Positions 142-12,269 of a stretch of DNA of 64,000 nt are shown here, piece by piece. Origin of the DNA: a virus (taxonomy: Duplodnaviria > Caudoviricetes); the IMG/VR virus record IMGVR_UViG_2974799246_000001, positions 96,001-160,000 of that record. One strand, written 5' to 3'. Under the pieces are notes generated by a model. It ran no database searches. It was not told the DNA's origin and saw only the letters and a list, made by a program, of their open reading frames with translations. Within the stretch, counting starts at the first letter, position 1, and the number at the start of each line of letters is the position of its first letter. The position numbers and the translations under genes are program-made.

Positions 142-2808
142 TCACATATAGCCCATAGTAATCATGTTCAACATCGGATCGTCCATAAAGATTGGAATCG
201 AATCGAGTGAATGACCAGCAGCAGGACTAGAACCACTATTGCCCGAAGCAGCGGGACGAGATACAGCGCCACCTTTAGGCTGATTAGCAACAGGTGCTGG
301 TGGTGCAGAAGGAGCTGGAGCAGCAGGTGCTTCCGTTCGAGCGATATCGCCCTCTGTTACGAGAGGCTGACGATCAACAGGAGCTTCTGGCTGAACTACA
401 GGCTCGATGCGATTGACCTCAGGAGCTTTCATTAATGCTGTAGGCTCCTGACCACCAAACTGTTCGTTACGCACATTGCGCCGAGCATCGGCCAATGCTT
501 CTGGCGTTGCTGCACGTTGGGTGTCAGTTTCAGGCGGTCGATAGTCAGAAGGTTTATGGCCATCTGCTACCTGTTGAGGCTTCGCAACGTCTGACGGTAG
601 TTGCTCGTTATTTACAGCTTTCTTCTTGCGATCTGCCTCTGCAACCTTAAGCAATACGTCCTTCTCATTCTGCGCTCGTGTCGCCACAGATTGTTGTGTC
701 TGCGCCGAGCTTGATTTGAAGTAACGGTCAGTCGTTGCTGCCTTGTAGTCCTGAATAGTCTTAATCAACTCTTCATCGGACATGCCGTTAACGTCTTTGC
801 CTTGAAGCGCATTGGCGATGACGCTTGTACCTGCACCATACTGCACAGCCGTACTGTACATCAGTTCTTTGACACCAGCACCACGCTTCGTCAAGTCCAC
901 ACCAACTTCGTTCTGCATCTTAGCCACGAGCGGTGCGTAATGAGTACGCGTGATATAGTCGGACTGCGCTTTATCGAAGTCGGCACCTTGAGTATTCGCA
1001 ACATCCTTATAGACGGAGTTGAACTGAGCAGTACCTGGAGCGAGTCCACCGAAACGTTGCAGGAACGGTTTGCCTTCAGGACTGTTCAGGAAGTTCATCA
1101 TGCTGCCGTTGTTCGTAGCGAGCTGGTGCTTACCGTACGACACACCACCAGCATCACCCTGACCAGTAGACACAGTGCCTACACCACGACCACCCGACTC
1201 GAACTGTTCCGACACTGAACCGAGACCGCCTTCTGCAATTGCGCGATTAGCGATATCGGTTACTTGCTTGCTGTCCATACGACGTGCAGGTTGAGCGCGA
1301 GCAAGTCCTGGGAATGTACCGCCACCAGAGCCAGGCATCCCGCCCATACCACCAAAGCCAAAAGGCATAATGACAGGCTGAGGGAATTTAGCTTTGTTCT
1401 GATTCTCTGCGGTAGTGTCGTTATACTCGTCCATCTTCTCTTTGCGGTCTTTCTCACCGTCAGCGAGCATCTTGTCCGATTCGTCAGTAATCTTTTCAGC
1501 GACATATTCGCCTACAGAACTACCGAAGTAGTCACCCAGTATGTTACCAAGCAGACCACCCAACGCAGCACCAGCAGCAGTACCAACAACAGGAACAACT
1601 GAACCGAGTGTACCGCCTATCCATGCACCAGCAATAGCACCAGTAGTACCGCCAGCAGCACCACCGATAGCAGAGCCGCCCGCTTTCTTCTTCTCTTTGG
1701 CCTTCTCTGCATCAGTCAGCGTTTCGTCTGCGTCGATGTGTTGCGTTTCGTTCGCATAAGACAGGCCGTTACCTAATGCAGGACCGATGATAGGAATCTT
1801 CTTCGATGCACCCGCCAGTAGTAGACTCGCGCCCGCTACAGCAGCATCCTGTGTTGCAGATGGAGGCGTTGGTACATCGCCCTTAGCAGCTTCTTCCGCA
1901 CGTTGAACCTCTGGTGCAGTAGGCATCGGTGTGGGCTTTGCCTCAGAGTCAGGAGCAGCCTCGGTCTTCTGGTAATCAGGAGCACCAACACCTCCATTCT
2001 CCGCGTTCTGCTCCTCAAACTTCTCTTGTGATCTGTGCTTCAACCACAAGCCACCAGCCACAGTAGCGCCTAGAGCTAGAGCAAGTCCCAGCTTACCTTT
2101 GAGCTTAGGCAAGCGGCTACGACGAGGTAGATTACGGCCTGGGCCTCTGCGTTCACCGCGATTGCGGCCGTAGCGTCTGCCACGTTTACGACGAGGGCGA
2201 TTATCTTCTGGGCCAAAGTCTGGACCAGCACCGTTGTCAGGCCCGTTATCGTCATTAGCAGAATCATCAGGACCGTTGTTACCGCCTCCACCCGCGCCAG
2301 GCTGATTGCCGTGTGGGTCTGACTTAGCGCGGTTCTTCTCTTTGAATGCTTCGCGCTTCTCCCACTCCAACCAATCTTCAAGGGCTTTCTGCGTCTTCGC
2401 AGATACTGCGTTACCCTCTTTGATTGCGTGAACGATATCTTCACCAGACTTCTCGCCTGCAATAAACAGGTCTTCCAGAGCGGATTCTACTTCACGTGGA
2501 TTAGGCTGTTGTGGTACGGCGCGCGGTGCAGCAGGAGCAGCATCATTGTTCTCCTGCACATAGCGCACACGCGTGTTGGCCATCTTCTCACGCGCAGCTT
2601 TAGCCGCACGGTTCTTAGCCCTTGAGCCTGGACCAACATAAACAATTTCGTCATCAAGCAGTTCGGGATCGTAATCATCCTCAATGTCATTGGCAGCACG
2701 CCGTCTGCGTTTCGGCTTAGGCATACCAGCGACTGAACCACTAATGCTGTCCGCATGTTCGATCATTAGTTCGAGTGCGGTTAGCTCTTTCTCTTTTGGC
2801 TTAGCCAT
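142..2808 (-). CDS. Tape-measure/baseplate-hub-like protein with a lysozyme-like peptidoglycan hydrolase domain
   Basis: 888 aa at the end of the tail module; TM-like segment LGLALALGATVAGGLWL; glycine-zipper stretch; SEQFESGG...DAGGVSYGKHQLAT motif resembling the VgrG3-type muramidase. Confidence 0.7.
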   Translation of the reverse strand: MAKPKEKELTALELMIEHADSISGSVAGMPKPKRRRRAANDIEDDYDPELLDDEIVYVGPGSRAKNRAAKAAREKMANTRVRYVQENNDAAPAAPRAVPQQPNPREVESALEDLFIAGEKSGEDIVHAIKEGNAVSAKTQKALEDWLEWEKREAFKEKNRAKSDPHGNQPGAGGGGNNGPDDSANDDNGPDNGAGPDFGPEDNRPRRKRGRRYGRNRGERRGPGRNLPRRSRLPKLKGKLGLALALGATVAGGLWLKHRSQEKFEEQNAENGGVGAPDYQKTEAAPDSEAKPTPMPTAPEVQRAEEAAKGDVPTPPSATQDAAVAGASLLLAGASKKIPIIGPALGNGLSYANETQHIDADETLTDAEKAKEKKKAGGSAIGGAAGGTTGAIAGAWIGGTLGSVVPVVGTAAGAALGGLLGNILGDYFGSSVGEYVAEKITDESDKMLADGEKDRKEKMDEYNDTTAENQNKAKFPQPVIMPFGFGGMGGMPGSGGGTFPGLARAQPARRMDSKQVTDIANRAIAEGGLGSVSEQFESGGRGVGTVSTGQGDAGGVSYGKHQLATNNGSMMNFLNSPEGKPFLQRFGGLAPGTAQFNSVYKDVANTQGADFDKAQSDYITRTHYAPLVAKMQNEVGVDLTKRGAGVKELMYSTAVQYGAGTSVIANALQGKDVNGMSDEELIKTIQDYKAATTDRYFKSSSAQTQQSVATRAQNEKDVLLKVAEADRKKKAVNNEQLPSDVAKPQQVADGHKPSDYRPPETDTQRAATPEALADARRNVRNEQFGGQEPTALMKAPEVNRIEPVVQPEAPVDRQPLVTEGDIARTEAPAAPAPSAPPAPVANQPKGGAVSRPAASGNSGSSPAAGHSLDSIPIFMDDPMLNMITMGYM

Positions 2809-3653
2809 TATCCACCTCTACGACCTCGCTTCGCTGCTAATGCAAGCGCTCGCTGTTCTTCGGCTTTGTTCTTATCGTGAACATAAGCACTATGCCAGTA
2901 CAGCAATTTGTTGATCGTTATATCATCTGGCACGTAGATGTTCTTGGCACTGGCTAGGTCCAGCGTCATGTTCATCATTGATGTGTCAGAAAACACACGG
3001 AAGTAGCCTAAGATATCAATCGGACTTTTATACGTGTAGGAGCGGAAGCACTTGTTGCATTTGTGCGTTGTCTCCAGCTCACAACTAACGTACACGTAAT
3101 TGCCTGCGTTCATTATCTCAATGGGGTCAGCGTATTCGAGCGTCTGCTCCAGTGGCAGGTCGCTGTCGATGTACATGGCATTCATCACCTGTGTAGCATC
3201 GCGCTCCTCACTAAGTAACACGGCTTCAATCCAGCGCTGAACGGTAGGATGGCGCAAGCCTTTTGGAAGGTCGCGCCATTTGTGTTCTACGATTCGTTGT
3301 CGCATGACTTCTTCGGTGTTAAGCAGGTTGCAGTCTACTTCTACGAATTTGCAACCACGCGGCCTGTCATAGTACCGCTCTCCGCGCATATCAACGAAGA
3401 ACGGTTGTGTGCATCGCCATTCGTATAGACGGTGCGACTGCGGCCAACTATTTCTATCGAACATCGCAAGCATATAACGGAAGTCTTCGAGGTACATGTC
3501 TCTGATCTTCACATTGGTGAAATGCTGCAACGTATCGACAAAGAGTTCAGGCAGTTTATACTTCTGGGCGTTGAACAAACTGGACATAGCGTTCGCAGTG
3601 ATTTGCTCAATACGCGCATCGGACCTGCCTGATGGGAGATATATCTCTAACAT
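2808..3653 (-). CDS. Baseplate hub assembly protein, T4 gp26-like with gp51-like C-terminus
   Basis: Start re-called to ATG 3653 (TAATG overlap with upstream stop); LPSG start, Cys pairs (CNKC); paralogous to 3653..4336. Confidence 0.5.
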   Translation of the reverse strand: MLEIYLPSGRSDARIEQITANAMSSLFNAQKYKLPELFVDTLQHFTNVKIRDMYLEDFRYMLAMFDRNSWPQSHRLYEWRCTQPFFVDMRGERYYDRPRGCKFVEVDCNLLNTEEVMRQRIVEHKWRDLPKGLRHPTVQRWIEAVLLSEERDATQVMNAMYIDSDLPLEQTLEYADPIEIMNAGNYVYVSCELETTHKCNKCFRSYTYKSPIDILGYFRVFSDTSMMNMTLDLASAKNIYVPDDITINKLLYWHSAYVHDKNKAEEQRALALAAKRGRRGG

Positions 3654-8970: not shown

Positions 8971-9390
8971 CTAGTCGTCGAGTCGTAAGCGAATCAGAGA
9001 AGACGTGGCGGCAGAGTCGGATTCAACGGTAGCGTCGTCCTCCTCTTCCAGGTCTTCTTCATCGTCAAGGTCTTCATCTTCTTCCTCATCGGAATCGGAG
9101 TTCAGACTGATGATTTCGTCATCGCCATACAATGCAGCGACTTGTTCTTCCTCGGCATTAAGCGCTAAAGCAGCAGATAACGCAGCAACGGATTCGTTCA
9201 TACCTGATGCACTACTCACGGAGTTAACGAGGCATGACGCTTCGAAGTTATCCGTGAGTTCGCAACAAAGAAAGTCCTCAGTGTCTGGCGCTACAGCAGC
9301 TTGAGCAAGCAAGCGGGAAGCATCCATCCACTGTCCGTCACGCGCTGCGACGATTGCCAGTGCAGCTAAGGAACCAGATAAAGTCTTCAT
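8971..9390 (-). CDS. Small acidic head-associated protein
   Basis: 139 aa, D/E-rich C-terminus, several S-x-S motifs, GAGG SD. Confidence 0.65.
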   Translation of the reverse strand: MKTLSGSLAALAIVAARDGQWMDASRLLAQAAVAPDTEDFLCCELTDNFEASCLVNSVSSASGMNESVAALSAALALNAEEEQVAALYGDDEIISLNSDSDEEEDEDLDDEEDLEEEDDATVESDSAATSSLIRLRLDD

Positions 9391-9415
9391 GCTTGGTCCT
9401 CAGTTAGTAGAACAC

Positions 9416-10264
9416 CTATGCGGCAGCCAGATGCGGGTGAAGCATCTCGTCCATCATCGCATAAATCTTATCTTTCGTTCTCAGGCGAGTAGATGAAAGC
9501 GCAGAGTAAATCTGTTCCTTCACCTTAACGCGCTTACGCTCAGGCACCTGCTTAATCAAATGGCCAAGCCGCTTTTGAGCCGCCCATATTGCCCTTTGCT
9601 TAGGAGTAGCATTTGCGTGTCGCGCGTTTGCTTTAGCAGCAATCTTTCCCTTGAACTCAGCAAGATACAAGGGATCACTCTTTATGGTCTGCCACGCAGC
9701 CTTACCTGCTTCCGAGTAAACACGAGAACGATGTTCAGCGAATTTCTTATCGCGTTTGCATCGCTTGCGTGTTTCTTCAAAGCGTACCTTCTTAGTAGCT
9801 TTCATCTTCTCGATAGCAAGCCGTCCGTCCTCAGTAGCGTACTTAGCTAACAGGGCTGCGGACATTTCACGTTTGCGTTTGTCTGTGTACTTTTCGCGTG
9901 GAGCATCAAGTGCCCCCTTACCGCCCGCAGAAAGATTCAATAAAGGACCTCCGTACCGTATGCGTTTAATCTTCGCAATCAGTTCGAACTCTTTATCGTA
10001 GGCTTCTTCCTGCGTATCATAACGATACTTGATTTGGGCGATAGGCTCATAACCTTCATCGAGTAAGTGTCGGAATCTTGCGAGCTTCGGAGTATTGTCT
10101 CTCGTCTGCGCTTGATTCTTCAAGAACTTCGCCCAATGAACGTTGACCCTATCGCCTACACCCTTTCCCACGTAGAACGGCTCATGAGAAAATGTGTTGC
10201 GGCCGTAACGGAATGACCCAGGTCGTCTTGGGTCCATTAGTACATAAACATAATGACGTTTCAT
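9416..10264 (-). CDS. Free-standing GIY-YIG (LEM-3-like) homing endonuclease
   Basis: HYVYVLMDPR...EPFYVGKG...R...E...LLN motif set; basic C-terminal DNA-binding-like region; inserted right after the major capsid gene. Confidence 0.85.
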   Translation of the reverse strand: MKRHYVYVLMDPRRPGSFRYGRNTFSHEPFYVGKGVGDRVNVHWAKFLKNQAQTRDNTPKLARFRHLLDEGYEPIAQIKYRYDTQEEAYDKEFELIAKIKRIRYGGPLLNLSAGGKGALDAPREKYTDKRKREMSAALLAKYATEDGRLAIEKMKATKKVRFEETRKRCKRDKKFAEHRSRVYSEAGKAAWQTIKSDPLYLAEFKGKIAAKANARHANATPKQRAIWAAQKRLGHLIKQVPERKRVKVKEQIYSALSSTRLRTKDKIYAMMDEMLHPHLAAA

Positions 10265-10283
10265 AAAGAGTGATCCCTCGTAT
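9665..10283. repeat. 22-bp inverted repeat pair (9665-9686 and 10262-10283), 21/22 identical
   Basis: Plus strand 9665 ATACAAGGGATCACTCTTTATG versus minus strand 10283-10262 ATACGAGGGATCACTCTTTATG. Confidence 0.9.
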
Positions 10284-10364
10284 GGATAATGAAGAACAAC
10301 TCAAGTGGTAGCGAGTGATACGAGCACTCGCAGAGCTGGCCGGCCTTTTCCCACAAGAGTTGTT
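10277..10364 (-). ncRNA. Structured leader RNA (multi-stem junction with possible pseudoknot onto the RBS)
   Basis: P1 AACAACUC-UU-GUGG / CCAC-UU-GAGUUGUU; P3 GCGAGUG/CACUCGC; loop CUCGUAU is complementary to AUACGAG at 10283-10277. Confidence 0.7.
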
Positions 10365-10398
10365 TATTGCTTTACATCAGTGTTCTAGGCAATCAATC

Positions 10399-11499
10399 CT
10401 AGCCTCGAACAGCTTTTGCGACTGAACGCACGTTCGCCAGAGTGAAGGAGAAGGTGCTAGACAGCAACCAGCCGCGGTCGGTGTTACCCTGGTTAGCGCC
10501 AGAGGTCGGAGTAGACTGGGTGCCGCCACGAGTGGTGTACACTGCGTGGTAGTCCTGGTCAGCCAGAACGTACAGTTCGCCGTCCTGCAGAACGCGGTGC
10601 TCTGGAGCACGGAAGCCGTCAGTTACCAGTTCCATACCCAGCAGGGTACCCAGACGACCGGTGGTGATCAGGTCATACTTAGACACTGGGTCCAGAGCAG
10701 AGCTGAACTGATCGTTACCAACGATATCGTTCCAGTAGTCCTGCGCCATCACGGCAGTGCTTACAGGCAGCGGCCAGCTAGACACAGAATTTTTCAGGGT
10801 AGACAGCAGACGCGGAGTCAGGTCACCGTGAACGAAGGTCATCGGGTTAGCAACGCCGACTGCCTGGTCACAAGCACGTTTCCACAGACGGTCTTCTGCA
10901 ACCATGATAGAAGACAGGCCGTCTTGCTGCGCACGGTCCAGCAGGTCGCCGTTGATCTGGTCCAGGTCCATTTTGCTGACGCGGATGTTGGATTTCAGTT
11001 CGAACTCAGCAGGCGTGTATACACGACCGCGGAACTGGTAGTAACCCATGTCAGAAGGACCGGTCGCGATGATTGCTTCCGCCTGGTGAATTTTCAGTTC
11101 GATACGAGCGATATCGCCCTGACGAACGGTAGCGCCTTTACAAACTTTGCGCAGCAGGCCAGCACGTTCAGCACGGTCTTCGATAGATGCAACGATAGAA
11201 GCACCCAGAGAAGCCCACTTCTCACCAGAGCTGTCAGCCACAGCTTCCTGGAACAGTTCGATCTTCTCTTGCTCTGACAGGCCGCCAGCGTTTGCAGAAG
11301 TAGAGTGAACCAGTTCGCCGTTCTGGAATGCGCCCATCAGCTTAGTGATTTGGCCCAGCAGGTCTTTTTGGCTCGATGCGTTGATCTCACCAGTGGAAGA
11401 GGAAAGCGCCAGCTCACCTTTACCACCAAAACGCAGGTCTTCGATAGGCGCGCCATTACGCAGGGTTACTTTAGCGCCGCGCATTAAAGAGTTGTTCAT
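10399..11499 (-). CDS. Major capsid protein
   Basis: 366 aa; strongest high-expression codon bias; position after protease/scaffold/decoration genes; HK97-like features (AEDRLWK, GRLGTLLGMELVTD). Confidence 0.8.
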   Translation of the reverse strand: MNNSLMRGAKVTLRNGAPIEDLRFGGKGELALSSSTGEINASSQKDLLGQITKLMGAFQNGELVHSTSANAGGLSEQEKIELFQEAVADSSGEKWASLGASIVASIEDRAERAGLLRKVCKGATVRQGDIARIELKIHQAEAIIATGPSDMGYYQFRGRVYTPAEFELKSNIRVSKMDLDQINGDLLDRAQQDGLSSIMVAEDRLWKRACDQAVGVANPMTFVHGDLTPRLLSTLKNSVSSWPLPVSTAVMAQDYWNDIVGNDQFSSALDPVSKYDLITTGRLGTLLGMELVTDGFRAPEHRVLQDGELYVLADQDYHAVYTTRGGTQSTPTSGANQGNTDRGWLLSSTFSFTLANVRSVAKAVRG

Positions 11500-11561
11500 T
11501 AGTTGCTCCTGAGATTAATCTCGTAAGTTTTCAGATACTAAACAGTCACGGTGCGCGACGA

Positions 11562-12269
11562 TTAAGCGCCGTAAGAGGAAGTGGTTTCGATGATCAGGTA
11601 GCCGCGCTCAGTAGTTGGCGCTTGCTTGATGATCAGACCTTTCAGCTCGGTGCCGTTACCACCGATGGTCAGCAGGCCGTTTGGACCCAGGCTTGGGTGC
11701 AGCACGTTGTCAGCAGACCAGTCAGCAGTCGGGTCAAACATAGAGGTAGCAACGTTACCCAGTTTGATGTACGCGATGCGGCCTTCAACGTTAGACGGCA
11801 GACCACCGATAGGAGCATCAGCAGTGTAAGAACGCGCTTCGGTCACGGTCAGTTCGTAAGCATACTGGATGCGAACTTTCTTACCAATGTCGTCAGCGTG
11901 GAAGTACAGGTCAGCACCCTGAACACCGACTTTACCTTCGGCAGTAGGAGCAGCGTTAGCTTCCTGATCTGCTTTAGTACCGTCGATTTTAACCAGCAGT
12001 GCGCCAGCGTTAGGAACGCGGGATGCAGTGAACTTTTTGGTAGCGTCGATAACGAACTCTTCCACACGGTTCATGTTCGCAGGCGGCATAGAGCGAGCCA
12101 GAGCGAAACCGGCGAATACTTCGTCAGCAGCACCAGTAGACAGACGCAGGAAGGAGTGACCGCCTTCGCGAGTCCAAACCAGTGCGACGCCTTCTTCGTG
12201 GATTACTTCACCCGGCAGCAGATCAGCTTCCTGGGTCTGTACGATTGCGGTAGCGTTTTGAAACAACAT
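11562..12269 (-). CDS. Head decoration/structural protein
   Basis: Start re-called to ATG 12269 (GGAG SD); high-expression codons; directly upstream of capsid gene. Confidence 0.6.
   Translation of the reverse strand: MLFQNATAIVQTQEADLLPGEVIHEEGVALVWTREGGHSFLRLSTGAADEVFAGFALARSMPPANMNRVEEFVIDATKKFTASRVPNAGALLVKIDGTKADQEANAAPTAEGKVGVQGADLYFHADDIGKKVRIQYAYELTVTEARSYTADAPIGGLPSNVEGRIAYIKLGNVATSMFDPTADWSADNVLHPSLGPNGLLTIGGNGTELKGLIIKQAPTTERGYLIIETTSSYGA

Follow-up and report, generated by a model that had tools for sequence, protein, structure and literature searches.

The 134-nt leader preceding a GIY-YIG homing endonuclease gene in the window (the whole stretch of 64,000 nucleotides analysed here, which comes from a 265-kb jumbo phage akin to the Erwinia and Dickeya Alexandraviruses) folds into a three-way junction, one loop of which matches the Shine-Dalgarno (SD) region of the nuclease gene, and a covariance model found the same leader in about 40 distinct phage sequences. 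We consider it probable that this is the cis-acting 5' leader of a mobile homing-endonuclease cassette, which represses translation by means of an SD-sequestering pseudoknot. Judged by sequence comparison, the leader is confirmed as a real structured element, far beyond chance.

All features of the locus are on the minus strand. The major head (capsid) protein gene (10399–11499; taken from the ORF list and annotated as major head protein in relatives L001–L003) ends 34 nt 5' of P1, the basal helix of the leader. The leader (10265–10398) is followed by the nuclease gene (9416–10264; P0001, 282 aa), a LEM-3-like GIY-YIG homing endonuclease (PF22945) with invariant catalytic-type residues (alignment A4) and a clear mark of purifying selection on its ORF; no PDB entry matched the nuclease in a sequence search. 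The cassette of leader and nuclease, about 1 kb in total, is missing in 51 of 51 related GenBank phages. In these nuclease-less relatives only 52 nt separate the capsid gene from the next conserved gene, and it is this spacer, with its simple GC-rich hairpin, that the intergenic leader of the cassette replaces. Presence/absence polymorphism between close relatives, which characterizes a free-standing homing endonuclease cassette, was found at this one intergenic site, with the empty allele in metagenome contigs and in the 51 relatives and occupied alleles in Logan contigs. The 1008-nt insert (leader and nuclease) had no blastn match among 50,697 phage records; absence from the relatives and the lack of a DNA match mark it as a typical insertion of a free-standing homing endonuclease. 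Searches for other copies, using the P3 hairpin in IMG/VR and the leader in the phage's own genome, returned a single copy only.

In the nuclease-less relative L001 (1600–1645; the same place in L002 and L003), the hairpin 3' of the capsid gene reads GAGGGCGGCAU...UGCCCUC followed by UU. The last codons and the stop of the nuclease in the window (9391–9430; GCUGCCGCAUAG GUGUU) still resemble the loop side of this native hairpin, and because of this resemblance the cassette seems to have landed in the 5' arm of the native post-capsid hairpin. The empty-site allele was also seen in a phyllosphere DNA run (X1) and in a straw RNA-library run (X17). Two 151-nt wastewater metatranscriptome contigs (X11) match 10070–10345, in the leader and the 5' part of the nuclease, with 1 and 4 differences; as contigs, they are no proof of transcription and give no RNA ends, and lack of cover elsewhere carries no meaning.

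The leader reads, in window 10262–10368 on the minus strand, as a three-way junction in the order P1, GAAAA, P2, CU, P3 and UA. P1 joins the 5' arm AACAACUCUUGUGG (10351–10364) and the 3' arm CCACUUGAGUUGUU (10295–10308) over 14 bp with a tandem U-U. The junction J1/2, GAAAA (10346–10350), which is GACAA, GAAGA or GAACA in relatives (alignments A5 and A6), leads into P2, a mini-hairpin of 3 bp, GGC[CGGCCA]GCU (10334–10345), with a near-invariant core. P3 is the hairpin GCGAGUG[CUCGUAU]CACUCGC (10311–10331), with 7 bp and a 7-nt loop, and the junction J3/1, UA (10309–10310), is nearly invariant in the alignments. The P3 loop CUCGUAU (10324–10318) is the anti-SD strand and the exact complement of AUACGAG (10283–10277), the 3' strand of the pseudoknot, which overlaps the SD sequence GAGGG (10279–10275) located 10 nt before the AUG at 10264. 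The pyrimidine-rich linker CUUCAUUAUCC (10284–10294) varies in length and sequence among relatives. An initial annotation made from this DNA had described P1 with its tandem U-U, the P3 hairpin and the complementarity of its loop to AUACGAG over the SD, and all of these sequence statements are correct for the minus strand. The short stem it had drawn around GGCCGGCC corresponds to the P2 hairpin (10345–10334), which appears in the minimum free energy (MFE) fold and is backed by compensatory changes. The same annotation had offered an alternative fold that would bury the ribosome-binding site (RBS); the 12-bp pairing is indeed present in the sequence, but its role as a switch could not be upheld, as it is 14.6 kcal/mol worse than the MFE fold, does not survive the compensated P3 of L010 and has no counterpart in clade B.

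The thermodynamic stability of the leader alone is unremarkable, with an MFE z-score of -0.97 for the 146-nt intergenic stretch and of -3.2 for the junction alone. In the MFE fold, window 10262–10284 forms a small local hairpin (CAUA-C-GAGGG with CUCUU-UAUG, loop AUCA), which would be a third way of burying the SD and the AUG in clade A. Pairing of the linker with GAAAA and a hammerhead-like junction were also considered, and on inspection neither had a consistent pattern.

The fold is carried by comparative evidence. The protein search retrieved relatives of the nuclease at 85–90%, 44% and 33–38% identity, and all fetched nuclease loci (8 of the closest 15, on related or more distant jumbo-phage contigs) have a capsid-sized gene upstream and a leader of 120–135 nt. 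Across relatives the core GAAAAGGCCGGCCAGC is almost invariant, and the helices are rewritten with compensation on both sides: in place of CAACUCUUGUGG/CCACUUGAGUUG, P1 has CAUCUCACACAC/GUGUGUGAGAUG or yet other sequences; in place of GCGAGUG/CACUCGC, P3 has GCGAAUG/CAUUCGC (L010), GCCUGUA/UACAGGC (clade B), GAUUAG/CUAGUC and more; and the P2 stem is compensated as GCC/GGC (L226), GUC/GAC (L266), GAC/GUC (L174, L150) and AGC/GCU (L148, L122). In alignment A6 (35 sequences), 89% of the cells assigned to pairs are paired, versus 55% after shuffling and 35–47% with slid partners, and the covariation score is 0.84 versus 0.22 for shuffled alignments, none of 500 shuffles scoring as high. Double changes were seen at all 14 pairs of P1, at two of the three pairs of P2 and at all three outer pairs of P3; because the model aligned A6 on P1 and P3, its pair counts lean to that structure, a bias that touches neither P2 nor the loop-SD test. 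P2 is 98% paired in A6, and this pairing is unbiased because P2 is absent from the model (R1).

The loop and its SD partner change together (e.g., CUCGUAU/AUACGAG, CUCGUAC/GUACGAG, CUAGUAC/GUACUAG and UCGCAC/GUGCGA). The perfect complement between cognate loop and SD region has a mean length of 6.45 nt versus 3.31 nt in 916 non-cognate pairs, of which only 2.3% reach 6 nt. Nearly all of the 31 distinct P3 hairpins (about 25 loop sequences) have their own complement of 5–9 nt, and the end of this partner lies 7–14 nt before the start codon, overlapping the G-rich SD. The loop-to-SD pseudoknot, proposed in the initial annotation from a single sequence, has thus gained many independent compensatory changes, and the covariance-model check on homologous loci that was recommended there finds P1, P2, P3 and loop/SD all covarying. 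G-U pairs exceed A-C oppositions in the helices (46 versus 17), which places the structure on the mRNA strand. In the closest clade the leader is 96–99% identical, versus 85–88% for the coding sequence and 72–79% for third codon positions; the leader is therefore under stronger selection than the protein.

We then estimated the spread of the leader with covariance models (R1, then R2), which were built and run over all fetched loci. About 34 of the 155 loci encoding relatives of the GIY-YIG domain match the model, about 27 further matches are at loci reached only via the core motif, and the empty-site loci gave no match. All model matches are on the gene strand and end at a start codon. The exact 15–16 nt core pattern has at least 119 matches in IMG/VR, roughly as many as expected by chance, of which only about 15 passed the model; the 17-mer core occurs in 31 IMG/VR stretches, and 12 of the 20 previously unseen among them passed. 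In 185,579 bacterial and archaeal genomes the exact 20-mer core has seven matches, none of which is the element by inspection, as they come without P1, P3 and a following start codon; two of the seven read as an open protein frame. In this search, which covered exact matches only, no sign of the family was seen outside phages.

In most cases the gene downstream of the leader encodes a LEM-3-like GIY-YIG nuclease, which in some carries an N-terminal extension and NUMOD3. The leader also precedes an HNH gene (L309), DUF4379/phrog_559 endonucleases (L084, L317), two DUF7487/phrog_3339 homing endonucleases on one contig (L122) and a ParB-like nuclease (L054). From these gene neighbourhoods, the leader is best described as a portable module of homing endonuclease genes and not the accessory of one protein, and its presence on unrelated nuclease families argues against nuclease autoregulation and against a guide or cofactor role. 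The earlier proposal of a cis-regulatory leader that travels with the nuclease agrees with these findings, as the leader lies inside the insert of about 1 kb and recurs before homing endonuclease genes elsewhere. In one locus (L168), a complete group I intron match (1459–1748; RF00028, 83.8 bits), into the start of which an ORF extends, lies about 150 nt 5' of the leader and its GIY-YIG gene (1902–3152), and this copy of the leader may be intron-borne. In two others (L211:1868–2081 and L080:12272–12485) the leader is intact and the GIY-YIG ORF ends after 39 codons, which may represent a decaying nuclease gene that retains its leader. In many unrelated jumbo-phage contigs (L153, L156, L160, L166, L147, L191 and others), the ORF upstream of the leader is 367–392 codons long, similar in size to the major head protein gene here; this nuclease lineage seems to have landed repeatedly behind the capsid gene.

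In the mechanism that we propose, the leader would be transcribed behind the heavily expressed capsid gene; the three-way junction of P1, P2 and P3 would form first and present the P3 loop of 6–7 nt, which would capture the SD region as soon as it emerges. The pseudoknot would then compete with 30S binding, and translation of the nuclease would remain low. What the comparisons demonstrate is the fold with its strand, the pairing of loop and SD, the association with nuclease genes and strong purifying selection; from this we infer that the pairing holds down translation, with the conserved junction and the P2 loop stabilizing or positioning the pseudoknot. As a bare duplex the loop-SD helix amounts to -6.9 kcal/mol, versus -6.4 kcal/mol for the 16S anti-SD with the same region. 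With the two about equally strong, the conserved junction probably adds stability or geometry; as this short helix is, on its own, no stronger than SD/anti-SD pairing, repression may be partial.

The analysis turned up nothing that would open the lock, and no promoter-like element. No sigma-70-type site (a type that may not be this phage group's) was found in 9300–10700, and the linkers of relatives share no conserved motif. The TGTAAA sequence just 5' of P1, which the initial annotation had read as a promoter-like core, had to be abandoned: it is not part of a sigma-70-type site, it is not conserved, and it has 54 matches in the window versus 57 expected.

The start region also has a predicted partner in the interior of the ORF. 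An intragenic anti-start-region site (9665–9686, minus strand), about 580 nt inside the nuclease ORF, pairs with 10283–10262, from the SD through the AUG, by 21 Watson-Crick pairs and one G-U pair. Clades B, C and D each have their own start-region/ORF pairing, with differing sequences and amino-acid contexts, 540–680 nt into the ORF and with 17–20 Watson-Crick pairs. These duplexes amount to -29 to -35 kcal/mol with z-scores of -7 to -9 in clades A, C and D and are weaker in clade B, and together they hold nine G-U versus two A-C oppositions. More distant members of the leader family are without such pairing. The two-layer RNA lock suggested earlier is thus supported for this nuclease clade, in which the 22-nt start region and the intragenic site keep 17–21 Watson-Crick pairs and the sequences differ among clades A–D. 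The long-range duplex would act as a second, thermodynamic lock after transcription of the ORF, with the pseudoknot as the kinetic lock. A duplex of 22 bp would also be long enough as an RNase III substrate and might be cut.

About 25 nucleotides of the junctions and P2 (GAAAA, GGC[CGGCCA]GCC, CCU and UA) are nearly invariant across nuclease families, which goes beyond simple SD masking and is a level typical of a binding site or an aptamer. The leader could therefore be a riboswitch-like or factor-responsive switch, the core of which acts as a sensor (a metabolite aptamer, a site for a host or phage protein or the ribosome, or a kissing loop) that stabilizes or releases the SD pseudoknot and so times nuclease synthesis; we regard this as unlikely. 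In its favour, the core persists while the nuclease proteins drop to 33% identity and even change family, and the leader has the riboswitch-type combination of a conserved aptamer-like core and an SD pseudoknot as expression platform. Several riboswitch classes share this architecture of a helix-enclosed conserved junction with an SD pseudoknot. The P2 loop (10337–10342) is usually palindromic, with GGCC in most members and GAUC, UAGCUA and UAAUUA in variants (L184, L261, L157), which would allow a kissing dimer; three of five variants without GGCC keep a palindrome, which is suggestive but, in so small a sample, not significant. L150, L154 and L298 are exceptions to the palindromic loop. An intramolecular partner for the P2 loop, sought as GGCC in the flanks or the ORF, has no consistent position and is lacking in some members. 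Against a switch, no alternative conserved pairing or anti-terminator was found and the only candidate switch is not conserved; there is no Rfam match, the gene context gives no ligand logic, and the P2 loop itself is altered in the most diverged members (GACG, UAGC, CUGAUC, CUAGCUA).

Three further explanations were weighed against the pseudoknot lock. In the first, the element would be an insulator or 3'-end structure for the capsid mRNA, which would take over from the native hairpin as terminator, processing site or exonuclease block, with or without SD masking in addition. In its favour, the GC-rich hairpin and following UU that the nuclease-less relatives carry here were removed by the cassette, and in most loci the element starts 16–40 nt past the stop codon of an upstream gene that is often capsid-sized (367–392 codons). 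This reading is nevertheless improbable, as the minus strand has no intrinsic-terminator-like site in 9300–10700, P1 is followed by the mixed pyrimidine tract CUUCAUUAUCC instead of a U run, the downstream structural genes must still be transcribed, and the loop-SD covariation is left unexplained. A compact, structured and conserved element adjoining a nuclease gene could as well be a separate small RNA, either C4-like or antisense, or a guide or cofactor RNA of the nuclease, and both ideas had been raised in the initial annotation. We give them very little credence: the ratio of G-U to A-C favours the sense strand, an own promoter or terminator was not found, and Rfam gave no match, the C4 family included. 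The variable segments (P1, the P3 stem and the P3 loop) are all used in pairs within the leader, which leaves no free guide segment, and the same leader serves unrelated nuclease families. Moreover, GIY-YIG and HNH homing enzymes recognize DNA by protein. Equally far-fetched is an element acting at the DNA level, i.e., a nuclease operator, a recombination site or a cruciform. It has in its favour that GGCCGGCC is a DNA palindrome and that I-TevI represses its own promoter via an operator (PMC2988022), but the covariation is of the RNA type and rich in G-U pairs, the P3 loop has the SD as its partner, always 7–14 nt before the start codon, and the core occurs with unrelated nucleases, for which a common operator is not conceivable.

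A portable brake on nuclease synthesis is thus the most likely role of the leader. A homing endonuclease gene can lie directly behind the gene that a phage expresses most strongly, here that of the capsid protein, and yet harm neither phage nor host. The leader offers a concrete, testable explanation: the nuclease would bring its own compact RNA brake, which is exchanged among unrelated nuclease genes. As a small portable translational off-module it may also be of use. The invariant core makes the leader a candidate for a new sensing RNA and, if the sensor reading were true, for a new riboswitch-like class that times the expression of a selfish nuclease during infection. In the capsid-slot clade, the 22-bp pairing between start region and ORF is a rare covarying long-range lock inside a protein-coding gene.

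The leader is not a named RNA family, as the initial annotation had surmised. An Rfam 15 cmscan (E up to 10; C4, riboswitches and self-cleaving ribozymes included) of window 9000–12000 gave four chance-level hits, none of them in 10262–10398, and an Rfam scan of eight homologous loci gave no match on the leader. Literature searches outside the 2023 catalogue of phage structured RNAs (PMC10690425; over 10,000 candidates) turned up no description of it. With neither an Rfam match nor a description from those searches, it is therefore classed as a new RNA family within a known kind of homing-endonuclease control, and with a three-way junction, a pseudoknot and covariation in every helix it is fit for submission to Rfam.

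The known kind of control is that of the T-even homing endonuclease genes, which are regulated by RBS-sequestering structures on read-through transcripts; such hairpins are reported for I-TevI, I-TevII, I-TevIII, segB and mobE of Aeh1 and are bypassed by a late promoter inside the hairpin (PMC2988022). As in the T-even hairpins, a cis RNA structure hides the SD of a mobile nuclease gene within a phage operon and would keep the selfish nuclease low; here the SD lies within the structure by loop-SD complementarity and by covariation in 31 distinct P3 hairpins. Unlike those hairpins, which are simple, gene-specific and without shared sequence, the leader combines a loop-SD pseudoknot with a conserved three-way junction in which about 25 nucleotides are invariant; many phages and several nuclease families share it, and an internal promoter was not found. 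With the C4 antisense RNA of P1/P7 it shares the make-up of a small structured phage RNA whose loops pair with the RBS region, but C4 is processed, trans-acting and has its own family model, whereas the leader comes without an Rfam match and without evidence of processing. The start of the MS2 maturation gene is closed by a long-distance interaction, and similarly the start region here is predicted to pair with a distant segment, so that initiation would be limited to nascent or unfolded RNA; the difference is that the predicted partner lies inside the gene's own ORF, about 540–680 nt downstream, and occurs together with an upstream pseudoknot. In the preQ1-II and SAM-II riboswitches, a conserved core is combined with a pseudoknot that buries the SD as expression platform. 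The leader is built alike in having a conserved core and an SD-burying pseudoknot, and it differs from both in that it has no Rfam match and no known ligand and controls selfish nucleases instead of metabolic genes.
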